Origin: a virus | Taxonomy: Duplodnaviria; Heunggongvirae; Uroviricota; Caudoviricetes | DNA length: 45,459 bases | IMG/VR virus record: IMGVR_UViG_2651869692_000003 | Direction: 5' to 3' (one strand) | In this document: positions 39,001-42,000 of the stretch, in pieces | How positions within the stretch are numbered: position 1 is the stretch's first letter | How the letters are laid out: each line of letters starts with the position of its first letter | Made by a program: the position numbers

Positions 39001-42000
39001 CAGAGTGCAGCGATCCAGCAGATACAGAAGGTTCAGGTTGATACAAATAATAACCTGAACAGCATGTGGGCTGTGAAGCTGCAGCAGATGCAGGACGGAC
39101 GCCTTTATATCGCGGGTATTGGTGCCGGTATTGAAAACACCCCTGACGGCATGCAGAGTCAGGTGCTGCTGGCGGCAGACAGGATTGCGATGATTAATCC
39201 TGCGAATGGCAACACAAAGCCGATGTTTGTTGGGCAGGGCGTTCAGATATACATGAATGAAGTGTTCCTGAAATATTTGACGGCTCCCACCATTACCAGC
39301 GGCGGTAATCCTCCGGCATTTTCCCTGACACCGGACGGGCGACTGACGGCGAAAAATGCGGATATCAGTGGCAGTGTGAATGCGAACTCCGGGACGCTCA
39401 ATAACGTCACGATAAATGAGAACTGTCAGATTAAGAGGAAACTGTCCGCCAACCAGATTGAAGGCGATATTGTCAAAACGGTCAGCAAGTCTTTCCCCCG
39501 CACGAGCACTTATGCCAGCGGCACCATTACGGTCACGATTAGTGATGATCAGAAGTTTGACCGACAGGTCATGATCCCGGCTCTGCTGTTTAAAGGAAGC
39601 AGGAAGGAACATTATGGCAGTAATAATCAACAGTCTTATGTTTATTCTGTATGCCGTTTGCAGGTAACGAAAAACGGGACAGAAATTTTTAACCAGTCAA
39701 CAACGGATGCTCCGGCGGTTTTTTCTTCCGTTATTGATATGCCTGCGGGGCAGGGAACGTTGACGTTAAAGTTTACGGTCTCTTCTTCAATGGTCAATAA
39801 CTGGACACCGACAACCAGTATCAGCGATTTGCTTGTTGTGGTGATGAAGAAATCCACCGCAGGTATCACGATTAGCTGAATTTTATAACCCATATACGGG
39901 CGCCAGAAATGGCGCCTTTTTTATTGCAGAAAAGAGAGAGGTAATTATGCGTAAAGTTTGTGCAGCCATGTTGTCCGCAGCCATCTGTCTGGCCGTATCC
40001 GGTGCGCCTGCATGGGCGTCTGAGCAGCAGGCCACGCTGAGCGCGGGGTATCTTCATGCCCGGACGAACGCTCCCGGCAGCGATAATCTTAACGGGATTA
40101 ACGTGAAATACCGTTATGAGTTTACGGACACGCTGGGAATGGTGACGTCATTCAGCTATGCAGGAGACAAGAATCGCCAGCTGACCCGTTACAGCGATAC
40201 CCGCTGGCATGAAGATTCCGTGCGTAACCGCTGGTTCAGCGTAATGGCGGGGCCGTCTGTGCGCGTGAATGAATGGTTCAGCGCGTATGCGATGGCGGGT
40301 GTGGCTTACAGCCGTGTGTCGACTTTCTCCGGGGATTATCTTCGCGTAACTGACAACAAGGGGAAAATGCACGATGTGCTGACCGGAAGTGATGACGGTC
40401 GCCACAGCAACACGTCTCTGGCGTGGGGGGCTGGCGTGCAGTTTAACCCGACCGAATCCGTGGCCATTGATATTGCTTATGAAGGCTCCGGCAGTGGCGA
40501 CTGGCGCACTGACGGTTTCATCGTGGGTGTCGGTTATAAGTTCTGATTAGCCAGGTAACACAGCGTTATGACAGCCCGCCGGTTCAGGCGGGTCTTTTTT
40601 GTGGGGGGAATATGGCAGTAAAGATTTCAGGTGTACTGAAAGACGGCACAGGAAAACCGGTAGAGAACTGCACCATTCAACTGAAAGCCAGACGGACCAG
40701 CAGCACGGTGGTGGTGAACACGGTGGCCTCTGAAAATCCGGATGAAGCCGGTCGTTACAGCATGGACGTTGAGTACGGGCAGTACAGCGTTATTCTGTTG
40801 GTGGAAGGATTCCCGCCATCCCATGCCGGGACCATCACCGTGTATGAAGATTCTCAACCGGGGACGCTGAATGATTTTCTCGGTGCCATGTCGGAGGATG
40901 ACGTCCGGCCGGAGGCACTGCGTCGTTTTGAACAAATGGTGGAAGAGGCAGCGCGTCATGCCGGGGAGGCGAAGAAGAATGCCGGAGAGGCAGAGACGTC
41001 CGCGAGGAATGCCGGCATATCAGCCAGTCAGGCAGAAAAGAGCGCTGCACATGCTGACACTTCAGCAGGATATGCATCGGAGTCAGCCCGGCAGGCGGCA
41101 GAAAGTGCAGCCTCAGCAAAGCAGTCAGAGGAGGCGTCCTCGTCCTCGGCCTCTGAGGCCGCTCAAAAAGCCAGTGAGTCATCACAAAGTGCAGCAGAAG
41201 CTGAATTGTCAAGAAAGACGGCAGAAAGTGCAGCCGGTAATGCAGCCAGGGATGCAACGACCGCAGCAGAAAAAGCCCGGGAGTCAGCAGAAAGCGCACA
41301 GTCAGCGGAACAAAGCAGGATAGCGGCGGAAGACGCCGTAAACCGAATCCCCACCGTGGTGGGACCTCCCGGGCCAAAGGGATAACCGGGGCCCGCGGGT
41401 CCTCAGGGGCCGAAAGGCGACAGGGGAGAGCGGGGAGAGACCGGTCTGACGGGAAATGCAGGTCCACAGGGTCCAAAGGGAGATACCGGTGCGGCAGGTC
41501 CGGCAGGCCCACAGGGACCGAAAGGAGAAACAGGTGCGGCTGGCCCGGTGGGGGCAACCGGACCTCAGGGACCAAAGGGCGACCCGGGGGAGACACAAAT
41601 CCGTTTTCGTCTGGGGCCGGCGAGCATTATTGAGACAAACAGCCATGGCTGGTTCCCGGATACAGATGGTGCGCTCATCACCGGACTGACCTTTCTTGAC
41701 CCCAAAGATGCCACACAGGTTCAGGGGCTGTTTCAGCATTTGCAGGTCAGGTTTGGTGACGGGCCGTGGCAGGATGTTAAGGGGCTGGATGAAGTGGGCA
41801 GTGATACAGGCAGAACAGGAGAATGACATGAATATACTAAAAAAACTTATGCAGCGTCTGTGTGGTTGCGGAAAGCATGATGGCCGTGAACACGTGCAGT
41901 CGCTTACAGCACAACTGCGACTGGGGCCGGCAGACATCCTGGAGTCAGATGAGAATGGTATTATCCCGGAGCAGGACAGGGTAATCACGCAGGTGGTGAT

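Follow-up and report, generated by a model that had tools for sequence, protein, structure and literature searches.

The best-described relatives of the gene considered here are the EPclA proteins ('EHEC prophage collagen-like protein A'), in which four domains follow one another in the order PfN, PCoil, Col and PfC (Ghosh et al. 2012, PLoS One 7:e37872, PMC3368898). EPclA is read as a phage side tail fibre, and its PfN domain was first recognised in Stf, the protein of phage lambda's side tail fibres; PCoil is a low-complexity region of about 116 amino acids between PfN and Col that is nearly without Leu, Val and Ile (PMC3368898). The recombinant protein is a trimer with a dumbbell shape and a thermostable, genuine collagen triple helix, and it was further shown that PCoil and PfC are separate trimerisation modules and that a recombinant PfN-PCoil fragment is itself trimeric (PMC3368898). 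One member, ECO26_0887, is listed in Table 3 of that work with 404 amino acids, a PCoil of 116 and a collagen domain of 78 (PMC3368898). Not every copy is intact: three of the 17 genes for collagen-like fibres that are listed from EDL933 and Sakai are defective and marked 'EPclA*' (PMC3368898), and the prophages in these two genomes have generally been described as largely defective. As for what such a fibre does, lambda virions adsorb more quickly, and to a wider range of receptors, when their stf is functional (cited in PMC3368898).

The stretch of DNA analysed here (the window, 45,459 nucleotides) begins with E. coli chromosome, comprising yehR, yehQ and part of yehP (positions 1 to ~3198), and continues as a lambda-like prophage (Table 1). 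Because the left flank ends in a partial yehP, and the integrase gene lies directly next to it, the prophage appears to be inserted in yehP, unlike its closest relative, PP4 of the EPEC strain E2348/69, which is integrated at torS/torT. The torS/torT site was considered for the present prophage and ruled out, since the two left flanks are without similarity and the one here is yehR-yehQ-yehP. Otherwise the prophage is largely colinear with PP4, and the matching parts have 96–98% DNA identity. The fibre gene follows J and lom. Downstream of it is a small gene of 89 amino acids, and beyond this begins a group of type III effector genes, one of them an NleG-family open reading frame; this placement, behind J and lom and before effector genes, is the one known for EPclA.

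Table 1. Features of the window at the side tail fibre locus, its neighbours and the left flank of the prophage.
Feature	Position	Strand	Basis or remark
yehR	4..474	-	left flank
yehQ	587..2590	-	left flank
yehP, C-terminal vWA part only	2587..~3198	-	left flank
Integrase	3266..4339		directly after the yehP part
J	36397..39879		upstream of lom; 1160 aa, open
lom (Ail/Lom outer membrane protein)	39947..40546	+	upstream neighbour of the fibre gene
Terminator-like hairpin	40574..40593		after lom
Truncated ORF, 257 codons + TAA	40612..41385	+	PfN, PCoil, first 2 1/3 collagen triplets
PfN, lambda-Stf-like N-terminus	40612..41010	+	Pfam PF08400, residues 1-133
PCoil, Ala/Ser/Glu-rich low-complexity region, residues 134-250	41011..41361	+	composition; PCoil definition and trimerising role from PMC3368898
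Collagen-like domain, 26 Gly-X-Y triplets, residues 251-328, stop in triplet 3	41362..41595	+	translation, Pfam
Ochre stop TAA, codon 258; orthologues GAA (Glu); G-to-T at 41383	41383..41385	+	allele comparison
In-frame remainder, now untranslated: 23 2/3 collagen triplets, PfC, TGA	41386..41826	+	translation, Pfam
PfC Pfam match	41599..41790	+	PF06820
Small 89-aa gene, PfC (PF06820) paralogue, intact	41828..42097	+	Pfam

Translation of 40612..41826 on the plus strand in frame 1 yields a single frame of 404 codons with one internal stop, a TAA at codon 258; a first-pass annotation of the window had likewise described one frame with a single TAA. Ahead of the stop, residues 1-133 match phage_tail_N (PF08400, the PfN domain) at E 5.2e-70 over profile positions 1-133 of 134, so that the lambda-Stf-like N-terminus proposed in that annotation is borne out, as is its Ala/Ser-rich region: in the 117 residues that follow PfN, Ala makes up 32%, Ser 21% and Glu 13%, and Leu, Val and Ile together occur seven times. 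In the Gly-X-Y series the stop stands for X in triplet three (GPP-GPK-G*P-GPA). Beyond it, 146 more codons are open as far as the natural TGA at 41824..41826, and they include a Pfam Collagen match (E 6.8e-17) and, in frame, the complete Phage_fiber_C profile (PF06820, the PfC domain; positions 1-64, E 5.8e-37). With the stop counted as X, the collagen run is an uninterrupted series of 26 triplets; the earlier figure of about 78 triplets is off by a factor of three, as 78 is the number of residues in the run. Since Pfam domains are found both before and after the TAA, in a frame with no further stop, the in-frame continuation is real coding sequence and not a product of chance.

Judged by these domains, the lambda-like prophage in the E. 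coli chromosome carries here a side tail fibre gene of the EPclA type, and thus a member of a family that has already been described (Ghosh et al. 2012). It shares with EPclA (e.g., ECs2717 and ECO26_0887) the PfN domain, the length and composition of PCoil (here a putative coiled coil), the single (Gly-X-Y)n domain and the in-frame PfC, all in the same order, and its 404 codons, PCoil of about 116 residues and 78-residue collagen domain match ECO26_0887. A DNA search found intact E. coli copies that are 96–97% identical at the nucleotide level, and protein identity to the 30 best cluster representatives is 76–95%. What sets the gene apart is the ochre codon in collagen triplet 3: EPclA is one uninterrupted four-domain ORF, and the TAA at codon 258 interrupts that ORF, so the present copy belongs with the defective 'EPclA*' copies of Ghosh et al. 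2012. The lesion is nevertheless of another kind, as the known defective copies (Z1382, Z3309/Z3307 and ECs2159/ECs2158) are described as having lost the frame between domains, not as carrying a nonsense codon within the collagen repeat. Isolated or inducible Stx and lambdoid phages provide close counterparts as well. VT1-Sakai (H0004), phage 2851 and the Escherichia phages 2B8 and Evi match the fibre gene and the small PfC gene over their full length at 95–97% DNA identity, with a tail fibre gene annotated over the match in each record (reading frames as annotated), and many Stx-converting phages also carry this gene pair at 95–97%.

The likeness to lambda Stf is narrower. The two genes share a homologous PfN and a site downstream of J and lom, and the homology, as far as the domains reveal it, is confined to PfN; the Pf2 repeats (PF03406) of lambda Stf were not detected in the present gene by Pfam, and where Stf has its shaft and tip, this gene has a stalk of collagen and a knob of PfC. 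In lambda, moreover, a full tfa gene is next to stf, whereas the next gene here is the small PfC paralogue, and further downstream there is only an apparent remnant of a tail fibre assembly gene. Laboratory lambda has a frameshifted stf and thus no functional stf, yet it is viable, so lambda also provides a precedent for a phage that loses an accessory side fibre gene to a small mutation and survives, although the laboratory lesion is a frameshift and the one here a nonsense change.

An in-frame stop that separates two recognisable halves might mean that two separate genes are the normal arrangement, a possibility that the first-pass annotation had named as fatal to its reading. This possibility fails. 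The orthologue in complete E. coli genomes is annotated as a single CDS (1215 or 1314 bp) with a separate PfC gene of 270 bp after it, and each annotated orthologue that was inspected is a single uninterrupted CDS. A protein search returned 3194 clusters of homologues; the best 120 of these 3194 are mostly 330–498 amino acids long, and their representatives combine PfN, collagen and PfC in a single protein, with lengths that vary with the number of triplets.

The nature of the lesion can be specified by comparison of alleles. The orthologue in AUSMDU00014361, the closest allele of identical length (1215 bp), has GAA at codon 258, and it differs from the window at three bases within six at the site of the stop, which could be taken as three clustered substitutions. 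An E2348/69 allele rules this out: with GGA GAA CCG for the GGA TAA CCG of the window, it departs from the window in this 9-base stretch by the G to T alone. Two of the three differences thus belong to standing variation, and one G-to-T transversion, at 41383, accounts for the stop. GAA stands at codon 258 in all five of the alleles compared. The protein alignments agree, in that GPPGPKG-E-[PQ] occurs in 96 of the best 120 of the 3194 homologue clusters (GPPGPKG-E-P in 51, GPPGPKG-E-Q in 45), and among 78 aligned homologues that have PfC the codon encodes Glu in 69 and is a stop in none. Measured against the same 78 sequences, only two states were private to the window, the stop and Y154. The latter (TAT against GAT or GAG) might have hinted at a G-to-T signature of oxidative damage or artefact; it was set aside when Y154 was found also in the intact copy of strain Z1323CEC0014, which leaves the stop as the only private change. 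Downstream of the stop there is no sign of decay, neither a second stop nor a private amino-acid state.

The TAA allele was found in no second assembly. Only one contig on record, JHSZ01000020.1 (draft assembly GCA_001266225.1), encodes the exact 257-aa product, and over the 91 bases that surround the stop the match to any complete E. coli genome does not exceed 94.5%. A 26-mer carrying TAA had no matches in IMG/VR, the JGI metagenomes or the GTDB species genomes; the corresponding GAA 26-mer, which served as a positive control, had 13 matches in IMG/VR and 2 in the metagenomes. Genomes that have the stretch around the stop carry it in a median of 7 near-identical copies.

How the rest of the prophage has fared is relevant to how the stop is read. 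The head and tail proteins of E2348/69 PP4 that were compared (small and large terminase, portal, the protease-capsid fusion, Z, U, V, G, T, M, L, K, I and Lom) all align to the window over their full length and without stops, and the tape-measure (1026 aa) and J (1160 aa) genes of the window are open frames. In PP4 of E2348/69 the tape-measure (30811..33866) and J (36257..39971) genes are annotated as frameshifted, and both are open here; the two prophages have decayed at different genes. In the window, the lambda-type replication gene O (12252..13144) is damaged as well. It has lost 7 bp, one AAAAGAA unit, at ~12703/12704, in an A-rich stretch right after iteron-like repeats, and its frame is shifted. 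An assembly artefact was considered for this deletion and ruled out: the shortened stretch has full-length matches in nine complete genomes, including O55:H7 DEC5A and several O157:H7 strains, and in O55:H7 DEC5A the same 893-bp allele is annotated as 'frameshifted'. To judge from these matches, the O deletion is a real, circulating defective allele, and the prophage was probably replication-defective, and so already impaired, before the stop arose. In a prophage already impaired by a frameshifted O, further decay is to be expected.

We consider it most likely that the TAA is a recent, strain-private nonsense mutation, an instance of the ordinary decay of a prophage gene, and that no working side fibre would be made. 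A G-to-T transversion at 41383 would have turned Glu-258 (GAA) into an ochre stop (TAA), recently and in the source strain alone, in a prophage gene that would no longer be under selection. The first-pass annotation had left the choice between a nonsense mutation and a sequencing error, and had described the fibre as one that would be truncated ahead of its receptor-binding end; a truncating lesion of this kind is supported by the comparisons above, and receptor binding by the lost PfC end is a putative role.

As the stop is known from the consensus of one draft assembly, the T at 41383 could also be a sequencing or assembly error in that draft, the real gene being an intact 404-aa EPclA. We regard this as unlikely, albeit worth weighing with some care. 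Such an error would agree with the occurrence of the stop in a single draft assembly, with a gene that has neither decay nor any other private change elsewhere, and with the several near-identical copies usually present in one genome, from which a short-read consensus can be mixed. The lack of decay 3' of the stop fits a very recent mutation and a base error equally well. T, however, is found at 41383 in none of the alleles compared, such that it cannot come from a collapse of paralogous copies. A wrong base in a consensus is uncommon when coverage is normal, and the contig, 172 kb in length, runs straight through the repeat-prone fibre gene without a break. Decay is also unsurprising in a prophage whose O frameshift is certainly real, being present in other complete genomes.

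A different reading would make the stop functional, either because it is passed, by programmed readthrough or by a host ochre suppressor, and some full-length fibre is made at a low level, or because the locus has become a two-part gene, with a PfN-PCoil stub and a separately initiated PfC. The frame is open and intact up to its natural stop, as such a reading would have it, and PfN-PCoil and PfC can each trimerise alone (PMC3368898). The one plausible in-frame restart is a GTG at 41548, which has AGGTG ten bases upstream and begins a 92-aa ORF that gene callers do call; other canonical in-frame starts 3' of the TAA would give no more than a fragment of PfC. The restarted product, however, would have no PfN for attachment to the tail. 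Recoding sites are normally conserved, and the TAA is shared by no homologue and its 26-mer is absent from each of the three collections that were searched. A suppressor tRNA encoded by the phage was ruled out, as no tRNA gene is present in the 45.5-kb window, and this, together with the lack of conservation of the stop, leads us to reject programmed readthrough; in E. coli, besides, UAA leaks less than the other stop codons. Overall, we hold a functional stop to be very improbable. Hardly credible at all is its most elaborate form, in which the truncated PfN-PCoil protein would be a functional trimeric stub that occupies the docking sites of side fibres, with a second product arising by low-level UAA readthrough or restart of a PfC fragment at GTG 41548, and which, if true, would mean that the nonsense codon creates a two-product fibre locus and not a dead gene.

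If the gene is indeed inactivated by a recent nonsense mutation, as we believe, several consequences can be envisioned. The frame as it stands stops after residue 257, and translation would end once PfN, the coiled coil of PCoil and the first seven residues of the collagen domain have been made. The resulting product of 257 amino acids equals the PfN-PCoil fragment that was found to be trimeric (PMC3368898), and the stub may accordingly trimerise through PCoil and perhaps dock on the tail through PfN. It would have neither the collagen stalk nor the distal PfC knob, and should not serve as a side fibre. By analogy with lambda, in which side fibres are accessory, and given that the tail tip protein J is intact, adsorption would be narrowed or slowed and infectivity kept; loss of the fibre should lower the breadth or the rate of adsorption, with J still providing primary attachment. 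The assembly of the stub, the effect on adsorption and the sufficiency of J are all extrapolated from lambda and from recombinant fragments of EPclA.

In practical terms, the locus is best annotated as one EPclA side tail fibre pseudogene, where the gene calls of the source contig have two genes (257 aa and 92 aa). The stop and the frameshifted O mark an effector-carrying prophage as partly defective, which is relevant only to estimates of the ability of this prophage to spread its cargo of type III effectors. Defective EPclA copies and dispensable side fibres have both been documented before, and the case is explained by known biology.

A few observations concern the genes downstream. The small gene that adjoins the fibre gene does so in all relatives inspected; it comprises a full PfC domain, with ~37–39% identity to the C-terminal knob of the fibre (tblastn). 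The NleG-family ORF (42248..42757) has 169 amino acids and TTG as its first possible start, and its Pfam match extends over just positions 6-80 of the 113 in the profile, suggesting that its C-terminal part may be truncated. Among the effector genes there is also an ORF of 77 amino acids (43861..44094) with a match to Caudo_TAP (tail fibre assembly protein), which looks like a remnant of tfa and is likewise annotated in a related prophage of AUSMDU00014361. Two further ORFs of the effector region, 42984..43757 (257 aa) and 44584..45459 (at least 291 aa, running off the end of the window), have no Pfam or NCBIfam match; on the source contig, outside the window, they are followed by an NleD-type Peptidase_M91 gene.
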